This document shows positions 19,190 to 52,804 of a stretch of 54,444 bases of DNA, one piece after another. The notes beneath the pieces were generated by a model. That model made no database searches and was not told the DNA's origin. It saw nothing but the letters and a program-made list of their open reading frames with translations. This stretch comes from a bacterium (GTDB taxonomy: Bacteria > Bacillota_I > Bacilli_A > RF39 > UBA660), in contig JAUNNO010000002.1 in the NCBI GenBank assembly GCA_030531425.1, forward strand, positions 1 to 54,444, written 5' to 3'. The position numbers and the translations under genes are program-made. Position 1 is the stretch's first letter; each line of letters starts with the position of its first letter.

Positions 19190-19195
19190 TAAATT

Positions 19196-19372
19196 GCTGG
19201 AAGATGCGACAACCCTTTATGAAAAACCTACTAATCGAAATAATAGGGAATCTGATTTATTATGGGTGTTGAAGACCTATTAATTTAGGGATCCTAAACA
19301 TAGTAATGTGATACCCACCTGGGAGACTAGGTTTTATTCGATTGAGGGACCGGTCTTTTGGCTATTTTTTTT
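19196..19372 (+). ncRNA. candidate structured RNA (6S-like rod with a central bubble; could instead be a cis-acting leader)
   Basis: 5' end GCUGGAAGA (19196-19204) pairs with UCUUUUGGC (19354-19362) just before U8. Further helices: CCCU/AGGG, AAUCGAA(A)UAA/UUAUUCGAUU, UGGGUGUU/GAUACCCA. These flank an unpaired 19-nt/16-nt bubble. Confidence 0.4.
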
Positions 19373-21573: not shown

Positions 21574-21643
21574 AAAGTGTTAATACACTTTTTTTGTTAA
21601 CATTATTAATTATTATGATATAATTAATTGAGGAGTGATATGT

Positions 21644-23035
21644 ATGAAATTTTATAATACATTAACTAGAAAAGTAGAAGAGTTTATACCTAATAATAAT
21701 AAATTTGTTAATATGTATACTTGTGGACCTACTGTATATCATTTTGCTCATATAGGAAATCTTAGGACATATATAATGGAAGATGTTTTAGAAAAAACAT
21801 TAAATTATATAGGTTATAATGTTAAAAGATGTATGAATATTACTGATGTAGGCCATCTTACTAGTGATGCAGATACTGGTGAAGATAAGATGTTGAAAGG
21901 TGCTAAAAGAGAAAAGAAGACGGTTCTACAAATAGCAGAATTTTATACGAACGAATTTAAAAATGATTGTAATAAGTTAAATATTAAATGGCCTGAGATA
22001 GTTATTAGAGCAACTTCTATGATAGATTCATATATAAGTTTTATAGAGAAGTTATTAAGTGATAATTATGCATACATTAAAGGTGGTAATGTATATTTTG
22101 ATACGTCAAAATTAAAAGAATATTATACTCTTACAAATAATACTGATGATTCTTTAATTGAGGCTGTAAGATCTGATGTAGAAGTTGATATAAATAAAAA
22201 AAACAAAAATGATTTTGTTTTATGGTTTACTAAATCAAAATTTGATTCTCAAGAATTGAAATGGGAAAGTCCTTGGGGGTTAGGATATCCTGGTTGGCAT
22301 ATAGAGTGTTCTTGTATATCACTTAAATATTTAGGAGAATATTTGGATATACATTGTGGTGGTGTCGATAATATATTCCCACACCATACAAACGAAATCG
22401 CTCAAACAGAAAGTTATATAGGACATAAATGGTGTAATTATTGGTTTCATCCAGAACATTTAAATGATTCTACTGGTAAAATGAGTAAATCCAAAGGAGA
22501 ATTTTTAACAGTTTCGCTTTTAGAAAGTAAAGGATATAATACTCTTGCATATAGATTATTTTGCTTACAATCACATTACCAAAAACAATTAATATTTACA
22601 TATGATTCATTAACTAGTGCTCAAAATACATACAATAAATTAATAAATAAAATAAAATCTATAAAAGAAGATGACTCTAAAGTAGATTTAGAAAAAGTAC
22701 AAGATTATAAGGATAAATTTAAATATCAGTTAGAAAATAATTTAAATACAGCTAATGCATTAACTATTCTTTATGATGTTATTAAAAGCGATTTAAATAA
22801 TAATACTAAACTTTATTTAATAAAAGATTTTGATAAAGTATTAAGTCTAGATTTAATAACATCAAAAAAAGAAGATGATGAGTTTATTAAATACATAAAA
22901 GATAAAATAGAAGAAAGAACTAAAGCAAAATTAAATAAAGATTACATTCTTGCAGATAGTATTAGAAAAGAATTACTAGATAAGGGAGTAGTTTTAAAAG
23001 ATACTAGAGAAGGTACTTTATTTGATATAATATAA
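21644..23035 (+). CDS. cysS: cysteinyl-tRNA synthetase
   Basis: HIGN (FAHIGNLRT), KMSKS, CGPTVY, and zinc ligands WHIECS. Confidence 0.95.
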
Positions 23036-27031: not shown

Positions 27032-27060
27032 TTGACAAAATATTAAAACTAACATATAAT
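27032..27060 (+). promoter_or_regulatory. consensus sigma-A promoter of the Asn T-box transcript
   Basis: TTGACA (27032-27037), 17-nt spacer, TATAAT (27055-27060). Confidence 0.75.
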
Positions 27061-27074
27061 TAAATAGTCAGTTG

Positions 27075-27315
27075 TTTAAATGTGGTGATTGGGAGAAGTA
27101 GTAATAAATACTAATTAAAGCGAGTTAGGTATGGTGTGAGCTAACAATAAAGTTTATTATGAATAACACCCTTGAACAGTTAATCTGAATAAAGTAAGAT
27201 TAATCGGTCGTAATCCGTTAGAAATTACTCGATTTGGTAGAATCGATAAAGTGGTCATATATTGACAATTTGGGTGGCACCGCGGAGGTAATTCGTCCCA
27301 TGATAAAGACGAATT
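27075..27315 (+). promoter_or_regulatory. T-box leader, Asn specifier (AAC), canonical antiterminator/terminator
   Basis: Specifier loop GAAUAACA (AAC 27165-27167). Stem I distal motifs AGCGAG and GGUGUGAG. T-box AAUUUGGGUGGCACCGCG (27267-27284). Alternative hairpin AAUUCGUC/GACGAAUU (27290-27315) overlaps the 3' strand of the antiterminator. Confidence 0.85.
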
Positions 27316-27334
27316 GCTATTATATAAATAAATT

Positions 27335-27410
27335 GCCCAATTAGCTCAGTCGGTAGAGCGCACGGCTGTTAACCGTTAGGTCGTAGGTTCGAGTCCTACA
27401 TTGGGCGCCA
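27335..27410 (+). tRNA. tRNA-Asn (GUU), CCA encoded
   Basis: Cloverleaf by hand: acceptor GCCCAAU/AUUGGGC, D arm GCUC-AGUCGGUA-GAGC, anticodon arm CACGG-CUGUUAA-CCGUU, T arm GUAGG-UUCGAGU-CCUAC, G73, CCA. Confidence 0.9.
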
Positions 27411-27417
27411 TTTATAT

Positions 27418-27493
27418 GCCTCTTTAGCTCAGTCGGTAGAGCGCACGGCTGTTAACCGTTAGGTCGTAGGTTCGAGTCCTACAAGAGGCGCCA
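27418..27493 (+). tRNA. tRNA-Asn (GUU), CCA encoded; second copy with a different acceptor stem
   Basis: Identical to the first copy from position 7 to 66. Acceptor GCCUCUU/AAGAGGC, G73, CCA. Confidence 0.9.
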
Positions 27494-27503
27494 TTTTAAT
27501 AGT

Positions 27504-27528
27504 AACAAGTCTTATGACTTGTTTTTTT
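27504..27528 (+). terminator. hairpin plus U7 between tRNA-Asn and gatC (terminator or processing/stability element)
   Basis: AACAAGUC-UUAU-GACUUGUU followed by T7. The gatC SD starts about 8 nt later. Confidence 0.65.
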
Positions 27529-27546
27529 GTATATAAGGAGGATACT

Positions 27547-27837
27547 ATGGTAACAAAAGAAAAATTAAAAGATTATGCAGCGCGTCTTATGTTTGATATG
27601 GATGATGATGGGTATGATAGAACTTTAAAAGAGTTTGAAGTAATAGAAAAACATATGGATTTAATAGGTAAAATAGATGGTATTGAAAATGTTGAACCTA
27701 TGACTTTTCCCTATGTTATTTATCATGCTAAATTTAGAGAAGATGAAGTTAAAGAATCATTAACTAATGAAGAGGTGTTGGCTAATTCAAAAGAGAATAA
27801 AGCTAATCAAGTAAAAGTACCTAAGGTGGTGTTATAA
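27547..27837 (+). CDS. gatC: Asp/Glu-tRNA amidotransferase subunit C
   Basis: AAGGAGG then ATG 27547. About 96 aa, directly upstream of gatA and gatB. Confidence 0.85.
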   Translation: MVTKEKLKDYAARLMFDMDDDGYDRTLKEFEVIEKHMDLIGKIDGIENVEPMTFPYVIYHAKFREDEVKESLTNEEVLANSKENKANQVKVPKVVL

Positions 27838-29282
27838 TGAAAACAATATTAGATTATAGGTCATATTTAGATGAAAAAAAAGTAACTAGTGAAGAGTTAT
27901 TTAATGAATCAATCTCTAAAGCACATATGTATCAAGAAAAGTATAATTCATTTGTAACTATACTTGATGAATATAATCATAAAGAATCAGATTCATTAAT
28001 AAATGGTATTCCATATTCACTTAAAGATAATTTTTCAACTAAGGGAATACTTACTACAGCATCATCTAATATACTTAAAGATTATGTACCAGTATATTCA
28101 GCTACTGCATATAAAAAATTACAAGATGCTGGTGGAATATTAGTGGGAAAAACTGTACTTGATGAACTTGCTATGGGTGGAACTTCAACTACCGGAGCTA
28201 CTGGTTCTGTAAAAAATCCTTGGGATCAAAATAGATTAATAGGCGGCTCATCTGGTGGATCATGTGCTGCAGTAGCTTTAGGGATTGTACCTTTTGCACT
28301 TGGATCAGATACAGGTGATTCAATAAGAAAACCTGCTTCATTTGGTGGTGTAGTTGGATTTAAACCTACATATGGCAGAATTTCAAGATATGGTTTATTT
28401 GCTTTTGCATCTAGCCTAGACCATGTTGGATGTTTTACTAGATGTGTAAAAGACGCTGCTATAGTTACTGATATATTAAAAGGGCATGACGAAAGAGATA
28501 TGACATCCCTACCTGATGAAAATATAAACTATACAGATATGTTGGATAATGATATAAAAGGTAAAAAATTATTTTATATAAAAGAAATAACAGATCCTGA
28601 ACTTTATAAAGATGCAGGAGCCATAACATTAGAAGTTTTAGATAAATTTAAAGAAGCTATAGAAAAATGTAAAAAAATAGGATTTATAGTAGAAGAAGTA
28701 TCAATAGATGAGAAATTACTTAAAGCTATATATCCTGCTTATATGACAATTAGTTGCGCTGAAGCAACAAGTAACAATTCAAACCTTACAGGAATACCAT
28801 TTGGTCCTCGTGGGGAAGGAAATAATATAAATGAAATAATGTTTGATGCTAGAACTAAAGGATTTAGTGAATTTATAAAAAGAAGATTTATATTAGGTAG
28901 TTATATATTACTTAAAGAAAATCAGGAAAGATTATTTAAAAATGCTCAAAGATTAAGACATATGATAGTAGATAAGATAAATTCATTATTTGATATTTAT
29001 GATGGTATGATACTTCCTGCTGGAGGAGGAATTGCTCCTACATTTGATGAAGAAATAGATAGATTATCAGATAGATATTTAATATTAGAAAATCATTTAG
29101 CTATTGGTAATTTTGGCGGATATCCATCTATTACTATTCCAAGTGGTTTTGTTAAAGATATGCCTATTGCTATTAACATAACAGGCCCTCAATTTAAAGA
29201 TGGTGAAGTACTTAATATAGCGAACAAAATAGAAGAAGAGTTAGGTTATAAGGGATTAATAAAGGAGGAATATGATGTATAA
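27837..29282 (+). CDS. gatA: Asp/Glu-tRNA amidotransferase subunit A
   Basis: Amidase signature GGSSGGSCAAVA..GSDTGDSIRKPA. Confidence 0.95.
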   Translation: MKTILDYRSYLDEKKVTSEELFNESISKAHMYQEKYNSFVTILDEYNHKESDSLINGIPYSLKDNFSTKGILTTASSNILKDYVPVYSATAYKKLQDAGGILVGKTVLDELAMGGTSTTGATGSVKNPWDQNRLIGGSSGGSCAAVALGIVPFALGSDTGDSIRKPASFGGVVGFKPTYGRISRYGLFAFASSLDHVGCFTRCVKDAAIVTDILKGHDERDMTSLPDENINYTDMLDNDIKGKKLFYIKEITDPELYKDAGAITLEVLDKFKEAIEKCKKIGFIVEEVSIDEKLLKAIYPAYMTISCAEATSNNSNLTGIPFGPRGEGNNINEIMFDARTKGFSEFIKRRFILGSYILLKENQERLFKNAQRLRHMIVDKINSLFDIYDGMILPAGGGIAPTFDEEIDRLSDRYLILENHLAIGNFGGYPSITIPSGFVKDMPIAINITGPQFKDGEVLNIANKIEEELGYKGLIKEEYDV

Positions 29283-30702
29283 AGTAGTTATTGGACTTGA
29301 AGTTCACTGTGAGATGAAAACAAATTCTAAAAATTTTTCTAGTGCTAAAAACACATATTCTGAATATCCTAATGAATTTGTAGATACAACTGATTTAGGA
29401 CTTCCTGGAATACTTCCTGTAGCTAATAAATATGCATTTGAAAATTCAATTAAAATGGCACTTGCTCTTAATTGTAAAGTACCAGATGTAGTAATGTTCG
29501 ATAGAAAAAATTATTATTATCCAGATTTACCTAAAGGATATCAAATAACACAAGATACAAAACCAGTAGGTCGTGATGGTTATGTAATGATAAATGTAAA
29601 TGGTGAAGATATAAAAATAGGTATAGATAATATACATCTTGAAGAAGATACTGCCTCAATGGATCATTTTAGTACTTATTCTTTAATTGATTATAATAGA
29701 GCAGGGGTACCATTACTTGAAACAGTAACAACTCCTTGTATGCATTCAGTAGAAGAAGCGCTTACATTTTTAGAAACTTTAAAAGGAATATTTCTTTATA
29801 CTGGTGTTAGTGAAGCTAGAGTTGATAGAGGACAAATGAGATGCGATGTAAATGTCAATTTACAAAATGAAGAAGGAAAATATATTACTCCAAAAGTGGA
29901 AATGAAAAATATAAATAGTTTTAATAACGTAAAAATGGCTATTGAATCTGAAGTAAAAAGACAAATAGATTGTTTAGAAAATGGTAGATCAAATGAACTT
30001 ATACAAGAAACAAGACATTTTGATGAAGAGTCTATGACTACAAAATCAGCACGTGCTAAAGCAGATGCAGTAGATTATAAATATTATATAGAACCAAACA
30101 TTCCACCTATTAAAATAGAAGATAGTTGGGTAGAAGAAATAAAAAAAAGTATACCTATGTTACAATTTGATAGAGTAGTAAAATATATGAGTAATTATGA
30201 ACTATCTCGTTATGATTCAGAAATAATAGTAAAAGATAAAAATGTATCTGATTATTTTGAAGAAACTATTAAATTAGGTGTTAATCCAAAAAGTAGCGCT
30301 AACTGGATTACTACTATGATACTTGGATATTTAAATAAAAATGATTTAAAAATAACTGATATTAGTTTTAAACCTAATGATTTAGTAGAACTAATTAATA
30401 TGGTAGACCATGGAGAAATATCTTCTAAACAATCTAAACAAGTATTTGAAAAATGTCTAACTGATAATAAGTCTCCAAAAAAAATAGTAAAAGAACTTGG
30501 TATGACGCAAATTACTGATGATAAAACAATTAGAGATATAGTAGTGAAATTACTTGATGAATATCCAAATTTAATAGAAGATCATAGAAAAGGTAAAAAT
30601 ACTTTTGACTATTTTGTAGGTCAAGTAATGAAACAAACAAAAGGTCAAGCAAATCCAGTAATAACTAAAAATATAATTAATGAAGAAATGGAAAAGAGAT
30701 GA
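29272..30702 (+). CDS. gatB: Asp/Glu-tRNA amidotransferase subunit B
   Basis: VIGLEVHCEM, NIHLEEDTA, RCDVNVN, and a C-terminal YqeY-like tail. Confidence 0.95.
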   Translation: MMYKVVIGLEVHCEMKTNSKNFSSAKNTYSEYPNEFVDTTDLGLPGILPVANKYAFENSIKMALALNCKVPDVVMFDRKNYYYPDLPKGYQITQDTKPVGRDGYVMINVNGEDIKIGIDNIHLEEDTASMDHFSTYSLIDYNRAGVPLLETVTTPCMHSVEEALTFLETLKGIFLYTGVSEARVDRGQMRCDVNVNLQNEEGKYITPKVEMKNINSFNNVKMAIESEVKRQIDCLENGRSNELIQETRHFDEESMTTKSARAKADAVDYKYYIEPNIPPIKIEDSWVEEIKKSIPMLQFDRVVKYMSNYELSRYDSEIIVKDKNVSDYFEETIKLGVNPKSSANWITTMILGYLNKNDLKITDISFKPNDLVELINMVDHGEISSKQSKQVFEKCLTDNKSPKKIVKELGMTQITDDKTIRDIVVKLLDEYPNLIEDHRKGKNTFDYFVGQVMKQTKGQANPVITKNIINEEMEKR

Positions 30703-30706
30703 TAAT

Positions 30707-32083
30707 ATGTTAGATTTAAAAGATATATATAAAGATTATAAAAGCTTTTTAAATAAAGATATCAAAATAAGCGGTTGGATTAAAAACCATAGAAAACAAA
30801 AAGAATTTGGATTTATAGATTTTAATGATGGAACATATTTTAAAAATTTACAAGTAGTATATGATAATAAATTATCTTCTTTTGAAGAAATTCAAAAACT
30901 ACATATAGGTTCTGCCATCACGGTAAAAGGAAAATTAATAGAATCTCAAGGAAGTCAAGATTTTGAAGTAACTGCTACTGATATTATACTTGAGGGAGAT
31001 TGTCCTGATGATTATCCACTTCAATCAAAAGGTAGGCCAACTCGTGAATTTTTAAGAGAGATAGCTTATCTTAGACCTCGTACTAATTTATTTAATGCAG
31101 TATTTAGAGTAAGAAGTATTGCTGCATATGCAATTCATAAATATTTTCAAGACAATGGATATGTATATTTTCATGCTCCACTTATTACAGCCAGTGATTG
31201 TGAAGGAGCAGGTGAGATGTTTCAAGTAACAACACTTGATTTAAATAAAATAGCTGAAAAAGGTACTGTAGATTATTCTAAAGATTTCTTTAATAAACAA
31301 GCAGCGCTTACAGTAAGCGGTCAACTTCAAGCAGAGACATTTGCTATGGCATATAAAAAAACTTATACTTTTGGTCCTACATTTAGAGCAGAAAATTCAA
31401 ATACTAAAACTCATGCTTCTGAATTTTGGATGATAGAACCAGAAATTGCTTTTTGCGATTTGGATGATGATATGAATATTATGGAAGATATGCTTAAATA
31501 TATAGTCAAATATGTGCTTGATAATTGTAAAGTTGAAATGGAATTCTTTGATAAGTTTGTAGAAAAAGGATTACTAAATAAACTAAATAAATTAGTAACT
31601 TCAAATTTTACAAGAATTGACCATAAAGATGTAATAACTATATTAAAGAAAGCTAATGTTAAATGGGAATTTGAACCTGAGTATGGATCAGATATAGCTA
31701 AAGAACATGAGAAATACATAACAGAATATTTTGATGGTCCTGTATTTATTAAAAATTGGCCAAAAGATATAAAAGCATTTTACATGAAACAAAATCCGGA
31801 TGGAGAAACTGTTGCTGCAGTAGATCTTGAAGTGCCTGGTGCAGGAGAGTTAATGGGTGGATCTCAAAGAGAGGAAAATTATGAAAAACTTGTATCTCGT
31901 ATGAATGAACTTAAGATGGACAAAAGCTCTCTTGATTGGTATTTGAATTTAAGAAAATTTGGTGGATGTACTCACTCTGGATTTGGTATGGGATTTGAAA
32001 GATTATTAATATATTTAACAGGAGTAGATAATATAAGAGATGTAATACCTTACTATAGAACTCCAGGAAATTGTGAATATTAA
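30707..32083 (+). CDS. asnS: asparaginyl-tRNA synthetase
   Basis: Class IIb: OB-fold N-terminus, FRAENSNTKTHASEFWMIEPE, GFGMGFERLLIYLTG. Start ATG 30707, just after the gatB stop. Confidence 0.9.
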   Translation: MLDLKDIYKDYKSFLNKDIKISGWIKNHRKQKEFGFIDFNDGTYFKNLQVVYDNKLSSFEEIQKLHIGSAITVKGKLIESQGSQDFEVTATDIILEGDCPDDYPLQSKGRPTREFLREIAYLRPRTNLFNAVFRVRSIAAYAIHKYFQDNGYVYFHAPLITASDCEGAGEMFQVTTLDLNKIAEKGTVDYSKDFFNKQAALTVSGQLQAETFAMAYKKTYTFGPTFRAENSNTKTHASEFWMIEPEIAFCDLDDDMNIMEDMLKYIVKYVLDNCKVEMEFFDKFVEKGLLNKLNKLVTSNFTRIDHKDVITILKKANVKWEFEPEYGSDIAKEHEKYITEYFDGPVFIKNWPKDIKAFYMKQNPDGETVAAVDLEVPGAGELMGGSQREENYEKLVSRMNELKMDKSSLDWYLNLRKFGGCTHSGFGMGFERLLIYLTGVDNIRDVIPYYRTPGNCEY

Positions 32084-44647: not shown

Positions 44648-45964
44648 ATGAATAAAAAATACGTAAATGAACTTAAAAATCATATAGGAGAAGAAATATC
44701 TTTTAGTGGATTTGTAGATACTATAAGAGATAAGAAATGGGTTATGTTTGTAATACTTAGAGATTCTACTGGTAAAGTTCAAATGACTATTGAAAAAAGT
44801 TTAGAAGAAAATAAAAAACTACTTGATATTATGTCTAATATATCAGTAGAAAGTACTGTAAAAGTAACTGGTAAATTAGTTAGTAATGAAGCTGTTAAAT
44901 TAGGTGGTATGGAAATAATACCAAGTAATATAGAAATTACTAGTATTGCTGAAAACCTACCATTTGATTATAATAATTTAGATGGTGTAAATATTGATAC
45001 TAGATTAGATTATAGATGGATAGATATAAGAAATGAAAAAAATATGTTAATAAGACAAATTGAATCTTGCATGGTTCAAACTATGAGAGACTATTTATAT
45101 TCTAAAGATTTTATTGAAATTCATACACCTAAATTAATAGGTGCTGCATCAGAATCTGGTAGTGAAGTATTTGAAGTTAAATATTTTGATAGATCGGCAT
45201 ACTTAGCTCAATCTCCACAATTTTATAAACAAATGGCAATGAGTGGTGGATTATCTAAAATATTTGAAGTAGCTCCATCCTTTAGAGCTGAAAACTCAAA
45301 TACTAATCGTCACACAACAGAATTTACATCTTTTGATTTAGAATTTTCTTATATAGATTCTTATTTAGATGTAATGGACTTAGAAGAAGATTTACTTATA
45401 GCAGGTCTTTCTAAAGTAAAAGAAAAGTATGGAGATGTAATAAAAGAAGTATTTAATACAGAAGTTGTAATACCAACTAAACCATTCCCTAGAATGGGAT
45501 TAAAAGATTTATATCAGGAATTGCATGAAAGATATAACTTTGAAATACCAGAACACGATATTGGAGATATGAATGCTGAAGCGGAAAAATTAACATATAG
45601 ATTAGCAAAAGAAAAATTTAATCACGAATTTATGTTTATAGATGATTATACTGCTACTAAAAGACCTTTCTATCATATGAGAGATGATGCTGGTCGCCTT
45701 CAAGGATATGATTTAATTTGGAGAGGTACTGAAATAACTAGTGGAGCACAAAGAGAGCATAGATATGAAGAATTAGTTAAAAATGCTAAAGAAAAAGGTT
45801 TAGGAAAAGATGTTGAATTTTATTTACAATTCTTTAAATATGGATGCCCTCCACATGGTGGGTTTGCTATTGGAGTAGATAGACTTACTATGTTACTTCT
45901 AGGTACAGGAAACCTAAAGGATACTATGTTTATATTTAGAGGCCCAAATAGATTAAATCCTTAA
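44648..45964 (+). CDS. aspS: aspartyl-tRNA synthetase, short archaeal/type-2 form (no GAD insertion)
   Basis: 438 aa. FRAENSNTNRHTTEF, GAQREHRYEEL, GGFAIGVDRLTMLLLG. The C-terminus ends ..FRGPNRLNP. Confidence 0.85.
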   Translation: MNKKYVNELKNHIGEEISFSGFVDTIRDKKWVMFVILRDSTGKVQMTIEKSLEENKKLLDIMSNISVESTVKVTGKLVSNEAVKLGGMEIIPSNIEITSIAENLPFDYNNLDGVNIDTRLDYRWIDIRNEKNMLIRQIESCMVQTMRDYLYSKDFIEIHTPKLIGAASESGSEVFEVKYFDRSAYLAQSPQFYKQMAMSGGLSKIFEVAPSFRAENSNTNRHTTEFTSFDLEFSYIDSYLDVMDLEEDLLIAGLSKVKEKYGDVIKEVFNTEVVIPTKPFPRMGLKDLYQELHERYNFEIPEHDIGDMNAEAEKLTYRLAKEKFNHEFMFIDDYTATKRPFYHMRDDAGRLQGYDLIWRGTEITSGAQREHRYEELVKNAKEKGLGKDVEFYLQFFKYGCPPHGGFAIGVDRLTMLLLGTGNLKDTMFIFRGPNRLNP

Positions 45965-48064: not shown

Positions 48065-48256
48065 TAATGTATTAAAATAAACTCATATTTTTTTATTAAC
48101 ATAATTTTAGCTTTTAAGTGCTTAAAATTATAATAATATGTTTACTTAATTTAATTTGATTTAAATATTTTTATAATTATATATAGATTTTATATATTAA
48201 ATATGTTATTATATATGTATAAAATAATATAGATAATAGGATTGCTGAGGGTAAGT

Positions 48257-51200
48257 ATGAAAATAGTTTTATTTTTATTGGATAAAGTAGTTTATTATAA
48301 ACTTCCTTCTATTGTATCAGGAAGTTATTCTTTTGATCCATATGGTGATGAAGAAAAACTAATAAATATAGATTCTATAAATGGTAATTGGATACTTCAT
48401 TCAACTGCTTTTTGCAGTATAATTGAAAATCAAAAAGTAGTTGAAGAATCTATACTTATGCCTAATAATTTTTATGTTCTTTATAAGGACAAGAAAACAT
48501 ATTTGCTTTTTGTAAATAATTTAGAAATACCTAATATACTAAAATTTTCATATAATGAAAAAATAAATTTAATTATAGGAAAAGATGATAATTGTAATAT
48601 AAAATATGACTGTGAATATTTAAAAGATAGTGTAGTAAAAATTAGCGTAAAAAATAATCAATTGTTACTTCAAAAGAATGATGATCAAATTATTTATATA
48701 AATAATTTGGCTTTAAAAAATAATTTTTATAATATTAATTTTGGCGATGAAATAAGAATTTTTGGACTAAATTTAAAAATATTAAAAGAATTAGTTTTGA
48801 TTGAAAAAATAAATGATTTAATTATAAAACCAAATGAAAATTTTAAAGTTTTTATTTATAATGATAATAATAAATTAAAGGATATTGAAATAAAAGATGT
48901 TGATTTATATCAAAAAGAAGATTATTTTTATAAATCTCCTAGATTTAAAAGAGATATAAAAACTAAAGAAATAAAATTAACACCTCCACCAAATGTAAGT
49001 GAGAATGAAGAATTGCCTTTAATTTTGGTGGTGGGTCCAATGTTAACTATGGGAATTACTTCGGGTGTGACGGTTCTTAATACAATTATTAGAATAGATT
49101 CTGGGGAAACTAATCTTCAAAAATCATGGCCTTCTATTGTTATATCAGTAGTGATGGTTATTTCTACTGTTATGTGGCCTTTGATTACACAAATTTATAA
49201 TAAAAAATTAAAAAGTAGAAAAAGAAAAAAAGCAATAAATAAATATACAGAATATTTAAATCAAAAAAAAGTTGAACTTGATTCAGAAAAGAATTTTCAA
49301 AAAGCTATTTTAATGGAAAATTTATTAACTATTAATGAGTGTATAAATTTTATTTACCATAGGAATATTTTGTTTTGGGATAAAAGAGTTGATCAAAGCG
49401 ATTTTTTGAATTTTAGAATAGGATTTGGAAATGAAAAGTTAGATGTTTTAATTGATTATTCTGAAGAAGATTTTTCGCTTGAAAATAGTGAAATTAAAGA
49501 AAAAGCAGATTCTTTAAAAAAAGAATATGAGTATATAGAAAATGTTCCAATTGGTTATTCTTTTTTTGATAATCATATTACAGCAATAATGGGAAATGAT
49601 AAAATTTATGATTTTACAAATAATATTTTAATTCAATTGTTTGCATATTATAGCTATGATGATGTAAAACTTGTTGTATTTACAAATGAAGAAAATTCTA
49701 TAAATTGGGATTATATAAAATATACAAACTATAATTTTAATAATATGAAGAATTTTAGATTTTTTGCTTCAAATCCAAAATCAATTAAAAGAGTTAGTGA
49801 ATATTTAGAATTCGAATTAAAAACTAGAATTTCACAAATGGAAGAAAAAAAATCGACAATTAAAAAGCCTTATTATGTAATTTTTGTTGATGATTATGCT
49901 AGCGTTAAAGATACTGAATTTATGAGTACTCTTGTTGAGATGGATGAGAATATAGGTTTTAGTTTAATAATATTAGAAAAGAAAATTAATAGTTTACCTA
50001 GTAAATGTAATAATTTTATTATGTTGGATGAAGCTGTATCTGGGGTTTTAAAACATTCATATGAAAATCAAGAATATTTTAAATTTAAAGATGAAATTGT
50101 TTATGGAATTGATATGAATTCAATTGCAAAAATAATATCGAATATTCCAATTGAATTTGAAGATAATGAAAGTATGGAATTACCTGAAATGTATACTTTT
50201 CTTGAAATGCAACAAGTCGGTAAAGTTGAACAATTAAATATATTAAATCGCTGGAATACTAATGATTCGATTTCTTCATTAAAAACTGAGGTTGGCATAG
50301 ATGAACGTGGTAATATAATATTTTTAGACCTTCATGAGAAAAGTCATGGGCCACATGGACTTATTGCTGGTACAACGGGAAGTGGAAAATCAGAATTTAT
50401 AATTACATATATATTGTCAATGTGTATAAATTATAGCCCTGATGATATATCTTTCATTCTTATAGATTATAAAGGTGGAGGACTTGCTGGAGCTTTTGAA
50501 AATAAGATTAATAATATTGTCTTACCACATCTTGCAGGTACAATAACGAATCTTGATAAGTCAGAGATGGATAGAACTTTAATTAGTATTAATAGTGAGT
50601 TAAAAAGAAGACAAGAAATATTTAATGATGCAAGAAATAAACTTAGAGAAAGCACTATAGATATTTATAAATATCAAAGTTTTTATAAAGAAGGAAAATT
50701 ATCAGAACCAGTTCCACATTTATTTATAATATGTGATGAATTTGCTGAATTAAAAAGTCAACAACCAGATTTTATGGACAGTTTAATAAGTGCAGCACGT
50801 ATTGGGCGTTCACTTGGAGTTCATCTTATATTAGCAACACAGAAACCAAGTGGGGTCGTAAATGATCAAATATGGTCTAATACAAAATTTAGAATATGTT
50901 TGAAGGTCCAAAGCGAAGCCGATAGTAAAGAAGTACTTAAAAGAACAGACGCAGCTTTTTTAAGACAAAGTGGTAGATTTTATTTACAAGTGGGAGAAGA
51001 TGAAATTTTTGTACTTGGACAATCTGGATGGTGTGGAGCTAAATATTATCCTTCAGATAAAGTTTTAAAACAAATAGATAAAAACATAAATATAATTGAT
51101 GAAAGTTGTACTTTCCTTAAAACTATACAATCAGATTCAAATGAGAAAAAGATAGCCCATAGTGATCAGATAACTTCAATATTAAATGAAATAATAAAAA

Positions 51201-52804
51201 TTGCAAATATTGAGAATAAATCCGCAAGAAAACTATGGTTAGATAATATACCATCTATAATATTGGTAGATGATATAGAAAAAAAATATAATTTTAATAA
51301 ATCGGAATATGGCGTATCAATTGTTATTGGTGAATATGATGCACCAGAAATGCAAAAACAGGATGTTCTTCTATTTGATTATTTGAAAAATGGGAATACT
51401 ATTATATATGGTAGTGATATTATAGAAAGAGAAATGCTTATTAATGAAATTATATATGCATCATCAAAAAATTATACTAGTGAAAATATTAATTTTTATA
51501 TAGTTGATTATGGTTCGCAAACAATGGGAAAATATTCCAAACTTCCACAAATGGGGGGAATTGTATTTCCAGATGATTCTGAAAAGTATAAAAAACTTTT
51601 TAAATATTTAGGTGATGAATTTCAAAGAAGAAAGAAATTGTTAATTGAAAGCGGTGGAGATTATTTAAATTATTTAAAACAGGGAGGTCAAAATCTTCCG
51701 ATAATTGCCGTTATACTTAATAACTATTCTTCAATATTAGAAAGTAATAACAATTTATATGATGAATTACCTAAGTTATTGCGTGACTCTGAAAGATATG
51801 GAATAGTGTTTATATTATCTACAAATTCGTCAAATGGGATTCCAACAAAAATTACTCAAAATTTTCAAAATATTTATGTTTTAAGATTAAAGGATTCTAA
51901 TGAGATGGATTTTATTTTTAATAAACATTTAAAAAAAGTTCCAAAAGAAATTATGGGAAGAGGATTTTTTAACAATGGAGAAATACTCGAATTTCAGGTA
52001 GCATCCATTTGCGATGAAAATACTTATAGTAATTTTATTAATAGTTTTATTGATGAACAAGAAAGAATTAATAGAACTCGTGCTAATCCAATACCGCAAT
52101 TACCAGAACATGTTTCTTATGACTGTATAAAACAGTTTATTAATACATTAGAAAATGTCCCAATTGGTATAGACAATTATGAACTTAGTTTATGCACTTT
52201 TAATTTTAAATCAAGTGTAGGAAATGTTATAACATCAAGTAAATTATTAAATACTAAAAATTTTGTTTTAAGTCTAATTTCTGTATTAAGAACAATATCT
52301 AATAATTTTTTATTGATTTTTGATTCAAAAAAAGAATTGGGATTATCTCAAAATAATAATTATATTACTGAAGATATAGAAAACAAATTTATACAATTAA
52401 CTGATTATATTGAAAAATGTATTAAAAATAATTCTAATATAGAAGGTACAATACTTATTTATGGATTTAGTAATGTTGTTTCATTAATATATAATAAGAA
52501 ATTACTAGAAGATTTGTTTAATTTGATAAAAAAATATGAGAAAATTAATGTAATCATTGTAGATGAAGCTTCTAAAATAAAAGATTTTTCTTACGAGTTT
52601 TGGTTTAAAAATTTATTTAGTTTTGATAATTGCATTTGGGTAGGAAAAGGCTTAGGAGATCAGTCATTATTGCGTTTATCAAATTATTCAAAAGAAATAT
52701 CATTGAATTATAATAATGATATGGGATTTTATATATCGGATGGTGAGTGCACTCTTATAAAATTACTTGATTTTATTTCAAAAGATGATAATCAATTAAA
52801 ATAG
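48257..52804 (+). CDS. essC: type VII secretion ATPase EssC (FtsK/SpoIIIE family)
   Basis: N-terminal FHA-like region, two TM helices (LILVVGPMLTMGITSG.., WPSIVISVVMVISTVMWPL), Walker A GTTGSGKSE (from 50369), Walker B LFIICDEFAEL, and ILATQKPSGVV. Start ATG 48257 behind TGAGGG. Confidence 0.85.
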   Translation: MKIVLFLLDKVVYYKLPSIVSGSYSFDPYGDEEKLINIDSINGNWILHSTAFCSIIENQKVVEESILMPNNFYVLYKDKKTYLLFVNNLEIPNILKFSYNEKINLIIGKDDNCNIKYDCEYLKDSVVKISVKNNQLLLQKNDDQIIYINNLALKNNFYNINFGDEIRIFGLNLKILKELVLIEKINDLIIKPNENFKVFIYNDNNKLKDIEIKDVDLYQKEDYFYKSPRFKRDIKTKEIKLTPPPNVSENEELPLILVVGPMLTMGITSGVTVLNTIIRIDSGETNLQKSWPSIVISVVMVISTVMWPLITQIYNKKLKSRKRKKAINKYTEYLNQKKVELDSEKNFQKAILMENLLTINECINFIYHRNILFWDKRVDQSDFLNFRIGFGNEKLDVLIDYSEEDFSLENSEIKEKADSLKKEYEYIENVPIGYSFFDNHITAIMGNDKIYDFTNNILIQLFAYYSYDDVKLVVFTNEENSINWDYIKYTNYNFNNMKNFRFFASNPKSIKRVSEYLEFELKTRISQMEEKKSTIKKPYYVIFVDDYASVKDTEFMSTLVEMDENIGFSLIILEKKINSLPSKCNNFIMLDEAVSGVLKHSYENQEYFKFKDEIVYGIDMNSIAKIISNIPIEFEDNESMELPEMYTFLEMQQVGKVEQLNILNRWNTNDSISSLKTEVGIDERGNIIFLDLHEKSHGPHGLIAGTTGSGKSEFIITYILSMCINYSPDDISFILIDYKGGGLAGAFENKINNIVLPHLAGTITNLDKSEMDRTLISINSELKRRQEIFNDARNKLRESTIDIYKYQSFYKEGKLSEPVPHLFIICDEFAELKSQQPDFMDSLISAARIGRSLGVHLILATQKPSGVVNDQIWSNTKFRICLKVQSEADSKEVLKRTDAAFLRQSGRFYLQVGEDEIFVLGQSGWCGAKYYPSDKVLKQIDKNINIIDESCTFLKTIQSDSNEKKIAHSDQITSILNEIIKIANIENKSARKLWLDNIPSIILVDDIEKKYNFNKSEYGVSIVIGEYDAPEMQKQDVLLFDYLKNGNTIIYGSDIIEREMLINEIIYASSKNYTSENINFYIVDYGSQTMGKYSKLPQMGGIVFPDDSEKYKKLFKYLGDEFQRRKKLLIESGGDYLNYLKQGGQNLPIIAVILNNYSSILESNNNLYDELPKLLRDSERYGIVFILSTNSSNGIPTKITQNFQNIYVLRLKDSNEMDFIFNKHLKKVPKEIMGRGFFNNGEILEFQVASICDENTYSNFINSFIDEQERINRTRANPIPQLPEHVSYDCIKQFINTLENVPIGIDNYELSLCTFNFKSSVGNVITSSKLLNTKNFVLSLISVLRTISNNFLLIFDSKKELGLSQNNNYITEDIENKFIQLTDYIEKCIKNNSNIEGTILIYGFSNVVSLIYNKKLLEDLFNLIKKYEKINVIIVDEASKIKDFSYEFWFKNLFSFDNCIWVGKGLGDQSLLRLSNYSKEISLNYNNDMGFYISDGECTLIKLLDFISKDDNQLK

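Follow-up and report, generated by a model that had tools for sequence, protein, structure and literature searches.

An asparagine-specific T-box leader predicted upstream of tandem tRNA-Asn genes and gatCAB-asnS in an uncultured gut lineage

The stretch of DNA described here (the window; 54,444 nucleotides, positions 1 to 54,444 of contig JAUNNO010000002.1 in assembly GCA_030531425.1) comes from a bacterium of the RF39 lineage, UBA660. It contains, in order, a promoter, a T-box leader with an asparagine (Asn) specifier, two tandem tRNA-Asn genes, an intrinsic terminator, and the genes gatC, gatA, gatB, and asnS. T-boxes are the textbook example of an RNA that senses tRNA charging, and they control genes for aminoacyl-tRNA synthetases, biosynthetic enzymes, and transporters. 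The genes for single bacterial tRNAs, by the general view, answer only to global growth-rate and stringent control. At this locus, the tRNA that the leader is predicted to sense is encoded by the first genes downstream of it.

The T-box leader and the genes behind it

The window has a GC content of 23-28%, and the genome one of about 24%. Every window feature described below lies on the forward (+) strand. The sigma-70-type promoter (27032-27060) has the form TTGACA-17-TATAAT, with TTGACA at 27032-27037 and TATAAT at 27055-27060; it agrees with the consensus at 12 of 12 positions and is the single such match between 26000 and 34000. The T-box leader follows at 27076-27303. It scores 135.5 bits against the Rfam T-box model RF00230 (gathering score 93; E 4.5e-30), matches the full model from position 1 to 219, and is the sole T-box that Rfam identifies in the window. 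Its parts are Stem I with the specifier loop; Stem II; the IIA/B element; an extra linker hairpin; Stem III; and the antiterminator. The specifier codon AAC (27165-27167), which denotes Asn, aligns with the specifier position of the covariance model and is followed by the conserved purine (A at 27168), in the context GAA-U-AAC-A.

The T-box sequence and antiterminator (27271-27300) were located by the Rfam alignment and by covariation analysis. The core, GGGUGGCACCGCG, spans 27272-27284 and includes the UGGC bulge at 27275-27278; the antiterminator helices are GGG/CCC and GCGGA/UUCGU. A competing hairpin of 11 bp (27287-27318) pairs residues 27287-27297 with 27308-27318, at a predicted free energy (ΔG) of -12.9 kcal/mol. 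The tail on its 3' side, AUUAUAUAAAU, lacks a U-tract.

Both downstream tRNAs carry the GUU anticodon cognate to the specifier. Copy 1 (27335-27410; ARAGORN, with 72.5 bits for the Rfam tRNA model) has the acceptor strand GCCCAAU, and copy 2 (27418-27493; ARAGORN and Rfam) has GCCUCUU; the two are otherwise the same, including G1-C72, G73, and an encoded CCA. Because the discriminator is G and the CCA is encoded, both tRNAs end in GCCA, the complement of the UGGC bulge. An intrinsic terminator of canonical type (27504-27528) begins 10 nucleotides (nt) past copy 2. It consists of a hairpin (27504-27523) with an 8-bp stem and a ΔG of about -9, and a U7 tract in which the T run reaches 27528. The gatC Shine-Dalgarno (SD) sequence, AAGGAGG (27535-27541), lies 6 nt further on.

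The protein genes of the locus were assigned with NCBIfam models: gatC (27547-27837; TIGR00135, 54.6 bits, cutoff 47.1); gatA (27837-29282; TIGR00132 as best match, 436.6 bits, under the curated cutoff of 481.1); gatB (29272-30702; NF004012, 560.5 bits, cutoff 338); and asnS, encoding asparagine--tRNA ligase (30680-32083; NF003037, 612 bits, cutoff 414). All three subunits of the GatCAB amidotransferase are represented, GatA by its sub-cutoff best match. Membership in the T-box family is reflected also in the downstream genes, since the two tRNA-Asn genes, gatCAB, and asnS all belong to aminoacyl-tRNA metabolism. A functionally linked gene occupies a separate locus 12.5 kb 3' of asnS. This gene (44648-45964) matches archaeal-type aspartate--tRNA(Asn) ligase (NF003483, 452.7 bits, cutoff 353; TIGR00458, 371.5 bits, cutoff 368.4), making its product a candidate non-discriminating aspartyl-tRNA synthetase (AspRS). 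The Rfam scan found no T-box ahead of it.

Much of this layout had been proposed in a first-pass annotation of the same letters: the consensus promoter; a complete T-box leader with an AAC specifier and 3' purine; an antiterminator of the form GGG..CCC and GCG..CGU; two tandem tRNA-Asn(GUU) genes that match the specifier by anticodon and the bulge by their 3' ends; and a hairpin with U7 that has the gatC SD close behind it. The model searches, alignment, and covariation analysis bear out each of these elements. The competing hairpin is present as well, but its stem, drawn there with 8 bp, extends to 11 bp.

Recurrence, architecture, and conservation

One genome from each of 185,579 species was scanned for GGGTGGNACCRCG followed, after a gap of 40-70 nt, by TAGCTCAGNNGGNAGAGC. 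The second element is the D-arm common to many tRNA types, so the scan is not Asn-specific. It returned 84 matches. In 68 of these, an Asn T-box core is followed 48-74 nt on by tRNA-Asn(GTT), in one to three genes. Seven more either run off a contig end or have a chimeric tRNA that results from collapse, and five belong to a separate element from Ruminococcus (described in the last section). Rfam detects no T-box in the remaining four (L032 and L076, Phe; L053, His; L072, Ala), which were set aside as chance pattern matches. Among the 84 matches, none has a genuine non-Asn tRNA behind a real T-box.

The hosts are metagenome-assembled genomes (MAGs) of uncultured low-GC gut bacteria, labeled "Bacilli", "Tenericutes", "Mollicutes", or "Erysipelotrichaceae", and were recovered from human, rabbit, ruminant, and mouse samples. 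Across the locus, the window shares about 80% DNA identity with its nearest relatives. The first-pass annotation had called for a check of synteny in related genomes, and the same layout is found in 68 other species-level genomes; on this comparison of sequences, the layout is far beyond chance.

Most loci are of the window type (type A): T-box, tRNA-Asn, hairpin with U-run, gatCAB. The tRNA-Asn gene is present twice in 47 of these loci, once in 13, and three times in 6, and gatC starts no more than 120 nt past the last tRNA in 54 of them. Over all 68 loci, a gatC or asnS start falls within this distance in 59. Where gatB is complete, the next gene is asnS in 14 loci and a gene of about 580 codons in 15; in both cases tested, the latter encodes a bacterial-type AspRS (NF001750, 714 and 742 bits). 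Such an aspS-type gene follows gatB in L014, L016, L044, L057, L005, L023, and others, in the place where the window has asnS. The presence of aspS under an Asn-specifier T-box implies that AspRS acts on tRNA-Asn in those genomes.

Other architectures are informative. In type B (L007, L018, L063, and L066), the T-box and a single tRNA-Asn gene are followed by a second Asn T-box, and then by gatCAB-asnS. This second T-box starts about 15 nt past the tRNA and about 340 nt past the first core, and both T-boxes have canonical terminators. (The 3' halves of the tandem T-boxes are almost identical, which suggests a recent duplication or gene conversion.) In type C, at five loci, asnS stands directly behind the tRNAs. 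In type E (L034), the only elements behind the T-box are a tRNA-Asn gene, a tRNA-Glu gene, and a terminator. Types B and E together indicate that the first T-box belongs to the tRNA gene, rather than being a gatCAB leader into which a tRNA was inserted by chance. The inverse order (tRNA or tRNAs, T-box, gatCAB) occurs on metagenome contigs L090, L106, L136, and L182; the tRNA-Asn, gatCAB, and T-box neighborhood has therefore been reshuffled repeatedly.

Tandem tRNA genes also leave traces in the assemblies. In L009, L111, and L120, a single tRNA-Asn combines acceptor strands from different tandem copies (for example, GCTCAAT...AAGAGGC). These chimeras are probably assembly collapses of the tandem repeat, so that some single-copy loci are likely artifacts. 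Contigs that encode the exact GatC begin 93 nt 5' of gatC, apparently broken at the tandem tRNAs, and add no context.

The sensor is conserved throughout. The AAC specifier is invariant in 66 of 66 aligned distinct leaders, always within GAA-N-AAC-A, and the bulge in these leaders is UGGC or UGGU, each compatible with G73. The RNAalifold consensus recovers Stem I, the distal Stem I helix, Stem II, Stem III, and the antiterminator, with compensatory double changes in 28 of its 37 pairs. The antiterminator helix (alignment columns 301-339) is largely invariant, and its closing pairs covary. GatA identity to the window protein ranges across the loci from 52% to 83%. Conservation of the sensor over such a range argues that the arrangement is old and under selection.

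Not every tRNA-Asn gene in these bacteria has a T-box. A metagenome scan with the 60-nt body of the window tRNA matched at least 120 contigs. Among the matches listed, five are T-box-linked, nine lie at contig edges, and about 100 are promoter-tRNA-Asn-terminator units or members of tRNA clusters; in none of these approximately 100 is there a T-box core within 110 nt upstream. All listed matches come from organisms of 23-35% GC (all but one no higher than 32%), and all have G1-C72. Constitutive tRNA-Asn genes thus exist in the wider lineage, on contigs that are not assignable to individual genomes.

Reading the locus as a single circuit

The first-pass annotation had placed gatC-gatA-gatB-asnS on the same transcript as the leader and the tRNAs. 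A comparison of promoters strongly backs this claim. Across 64 loci, a consensus promoter stands at a fixed distance upstream of the T-box, agreeing at 12 of 12 positions in 48, at 11 in 14, and at 10 in the other two. From 45 nt inside the final tRNA to 45 nt beyond it, promoter-like sites (at least 8/12) are absent in 57 of the 64 loci, and in the other loci the best site reaches 9/12 at most. Hidden promoters in the 3' part of the T-box or in the tRNA-gatC spacer were considered and rejected: the candidates are weak matches of 8-10/12, as is usual for AT-rich DNA.

The claim needs a correction, however, in that a terminator consistently interrupts the spacer. In related loci, the last tRNA and the start codon are about 50-65 nt apart, and the plan is constant (about 10 nt, a hairpin, U4-U8, 6-15 nt, and the SD), with a stem sequence that varies by lineage. 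The post-tRNA terminator is found at the same position in 59 of 67 loci when an energy criterion is applied. Four of the remaining eight have the second T-box there, and the other four have the same hairpin and U7 slightly under the energy cut-off. With a conserved terminator after the tRNAs, gatCAB-asnS can receive a read-through fraction only. We infer that the hairpin and U-run would act as a partial stop, setting a high ratio of tRNA to mRNA; once processed, the hairpin may also stabilize the 5' end of the gatC mRNA.

The terminator could instead mark the end of the unit. The T-box would then serve the tRNAs alone, and gatCAB-asnS would be transcribed from an unrecognized promoter that overlaps the 3' end of the second tRNA or the terminator itself. 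The canonical form of the terminator at 27504-27528 and its retention in nearly all loci fit this arrangement, as does L034, in which the T-box unit contains only tRNAs. Set against it are the promoter survey just described and the position of the SD, just 6-15 nt behind the terminator. Furthermore, the second T-box in the four type B genomes starts so close to the tRNA that upstream transcription is needed. Two separate units are accordingly considered quite unlikely.

Instead, it seems probable that one strong promoter drives one transcript comprising the Asn T-box, two tRNA-Asn, a partial terminator, and gatC-gatA-gatB-asnS, which would apply T-box logic to the gene for the T-box's own ligand. 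The sequence elements, their conservation and covariation, and the lack of internal promoters are direct observations; that the parts are transcribed together, that read-through depends on the tRNA, and that termination is partial, along with the physiological rationale, are deduced from sequence and comparison. Uncharged tRNA-Asn would pair through its GUU anticodon with the AAC specifier, and through its free GCCA end with the UGGC bulge. The antiterminator would thereby be stabilized against the competing hairpin, and more polymerases would reach the tRNA genes. RNase P and 3' processing would free the two tRNAs. The hairpin and U7 past the tRNAs would halt most transcripts, and the share that reads through would yield GatCAB and asparaginyl-tRNA synthetase (AsnRS). 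The sensed tRNA would thus boost its own synthesis together with that of its charging enzymes: positive autoregulation, closed by a negative loop via charging. This differs from the feed-forward loop named in the first-pass annotation; the circuit is better described as one in which the ligand positively regulates itself while the enzymes that charge it are induced along with it.

Several observations weigh against this scheme. The window leader and about 55 of the 69 leaders lack a U-tract behind the T-box hairpin, so the poor U-tract remarked upon in the first-pass annotation is a general property. These leaders have mixed A/U or A-run tails (the latter in the L002 group, behind the stem), and hairpins of about -4 to -12 kcal/mol. 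By contrast, where a T-box of the same lineage stands directly before gatC, its stem has 16 bp (-15 to -20 kcal/mol) and U7-U9 comes after it. The difference indicates that classical termination may be weak or absent here; as far as this comparison goes, T-boxes ahead of tRNA genes have mostly lost the U-tract. The post-tRNA terminator, for its part, has the look of an efficient one, and the T-box could then have little influence on gatCAB-asnS. Finally, given the stand-alone units, the cell may draw most of its tRNA-Asn from genes other than the T-box-linked copies.

The missing U-tract invites two further explanations. The T-box might bind tRNA-Asn and switch, but without intrinsic termination: the choice between antiterminator and hairpin would determine how the tRNA precursor matures or how stable it is (for instance, through RNase access near the tRNA 5' end, 16 nt on), or the leader released by RNase P would itself be a tRNA-Asn-binding RNA. 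In most of the 69 leaders, the predicted hairpin pairs TTCGTCC, which forms the 3' side of the antiterminator, yet a T run of at least five follows the hairpin in only 14 (U5-U9, canonical terminators). The hairpin ends just 10-20 nt from the tRNA 5' end, and the same organisms use clear U-tract terminators elsewhere, both right behind the tRNAs and in the T-boxes before gatC. The A-run behind the stem in the L002 group points the same way. However, the fold offers no specific alternative pairing between leader and tRNA. (Pairing in cis was considered as evidence and discarded: the minimum-free-energy fold joins GGGUGGC to the tRNA 3' end, which is the trivial UGGC/GCCA complementarity expected in any case.) Moreover, a subset of lineages has canonical terminators at the same position, and with an all-A/U tail in a genome of 24% GC, weak termination could still occur. 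Regulation without termination is therefore regarded as unlikely. Similarly doubtful is a broader proposal, in which the switch in the window's lineage governs tRNA-precursor processing or stability, or the leader binds tRNA-Asn, and the two conserved G1-C72 isodecoders, with their different acceptor stems, are split between the direct (AsnRS) and the indirect (AspRS/GatCAB) routes. If true, it would represent a riboswitch that rules production of its own ligand via a new expression platform, along with a GatCAB that breaks the U1-A72 rule.

Alternatively, the T-box of this lineage could be a decaying relic, with the tRNAs and gatCAB-asnS expressed constitutively from the strong promoter. Loss of the U-tract in most leaders would follow naturally, and the perfect consensus promoter fits constitutive stable-RNA genes and resembles those of the stand-alone tRNA-Asn genes. 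But decay is hard to square with the specifier, bulge, and helices, all kept with compensatory changes in 66 divergent leaders, or with a predicted hairpin that still pairs the antiterminator 3' strand in most of them; and a non-functional leader of 230 nt would not last in reduced genomes. A relic is considered very unlikely.

The preferred interpretation of the expression platform is a leaky attenuator, presumably leaky by design, for a gene whose basal expression must be high. With no U-tract at the T-box terminator, basal expression would be expected to be high and its induction modest, as befits a gene for a stable RNA.

Known systems and tRNA-Asn identity

The leader shares its architecture with classical transcriptional T-boxes such as those of Bacillus subtilis tyrS and glyQS (RF00230): Stem I with its specifier loop; Stem II; IIA/B; Stem III; the UGGN bulge that pairs with tRNA NCCA; and the mutually exclusive antiterminator and hairpin. 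It differs in that the first genes it would regulate are those for the cognate tRNA, rather than for a synthetase, biosynthetic enzyme, or transporter, and in that the competing hairpin lacks a U-tract here and in most relatives. In Clostridium acetobutylicum, genes for tRNA-dependent amidation are reportedly under Asn T-box control. An Asn-specifier T-box there reportedly precedes gatCAB together with a gene for an aspartyl/asparaginyl-tRNA synthetase, and aspS likewise follows gatB in relatives of the window. That operon is not known to contain tRNA genes, whereas here one to three tRNA-Asn genes either separate the leader from gatC or come with their own T-box. The Escherichia coli thrU-tyrU-glyT-thrT-tufB operon is a mixed tRNA-mRNA operon whose tRNAs are released by processing. 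As there, the tRNAs at this locus appear to be co-transcribed ahead of translation-related protein genes. The E. coli operon, however, is not known to have a riboswitch, its tRNAs are not cognate to a sensor, and the internal terminator that divides the tRNA part from the mRNA part is a feature of the present locus.

The Asn-transamidosome, composed of tRNA-Asn, non-discriminating AspRS, and GatCAB (PMC3367201), offers another comparison. Its RNA and protein partners are encoded side by side at these loci (tRNA-Asn and GatCAB, with AspRS in 15 relatives), and a candidate non-discriminating AspRS is encoded 12.5 kb away in the window. The tRNA-Asn, however, has G1-C72 and not U1-A72. The U1-A72 pair is the identity element for bacterial GatCAB (Bailly et al., PMC1635274), and its replacement by G1-C72 cut amidation 102-fold in Neisseria (PMC1635274).

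All 129 of the 129 T-box-linked tRNA-Asn copies, the window pair included, have G1-C72 and thus lack the pair expected of a tRNA-Asn used by GatCAB. All but one ARAGORN call also have G73 and an encoded CCA. Tandem copies differ almost solely in the acceptor stem, with a conserved pair of stems (GCUCAAU in the first copy, GCCUGAU in the second) in most loci, in place of the GCCCAAU and GCCUCUU of the window. These G1-C72 tRNAs nonetheless share an Asn sensor with gatCAB, and in relatives also with aspS. Either GatCAB recognition is different in this clade, or GatCAB functions here mainly for Gln. The first-pass annotation had both charging routes served by the transcript; genes for the direct and the indirect route are indeed present, but G1-C72 complicates the indirect one. 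The linkage of such a tRNA-Asn to gatCAB and aspS also calls into question the generality of the GatCAB identity rule.

The T-box surveys consulted name as targets synthetases, biosynthetic genes, transporters, and regulators; a tRNA gene falls outside these classes. Wels et al. (PMC2494555) found no T-boxes ahead of amidotransferase genes, and TBDB, which pairs T-boxes with tRNAs elsewhere in the genome, does not mention tRNA genes as downstream targets. The full-text literature searched does not describe a T-box placed immediately ahead of a tRNA gene, although its coverage is incomplete and a prior mention is possible. The sensor is an ordinary T-box. What appears new is its target, the gene for its own ligand, together with a conserved operon design that includes two terminators; the expression platform is possibly new as well.

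In about 70 species of an uncultured, genome-reduced gut lineage, a tRNA apparently regulates transcription of its own gene through a riboswitch. This would constitute a concrete case of tRNA-specific and charge-specific control of tRNA supply, and a natural positive-feedback circuit tied to the induction of charging enzymes. The naturally occurring forms of the T-box (U-tract present, U-tract absent, and duplicated) also provide material for work on the tuning or repurposing of expression platforms.

Other elements

The separate Ruminococcus element is present in five MAGs (L001, L017, L022, L041, and L068; for example, L017 7010-7339). It consists of a T-box with a canonical terminator, followed by a conserved tRNA-like element. 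The T-box scores 95-97 bits in three of the five loci, and L001 and L022 have no match at the gathering score. The tRNA-like element has the acceptor stem GUGCCGU/ACGGCAC, with G3.U70 in L017 and L041; it carries A73 and CCA, and both its D arm and its T arm are normal. A conserved GUCUUGUAUAAGAC hairpin lies in the anticodon region, which is otherwise aberrant and variable. The element lies directly ahead of an SD and an open reading frame starting MQWTGLNDLREKYLSFF, read as similar to alanyl-tRNA synthetase, and may be a tRNA-Ala mimic in an alaS leader.

Elsewhere in the window, the Rfam scan found no T-box upstream of cysS (21635-23035). A 6S RNA is encoded at 19191-19368 (RF00013, 76.7 bits), and an EssC-type type VII secretion ATPase of 1520 amino acids at 48242-52804 (TIGR03928, 920.7 bits).

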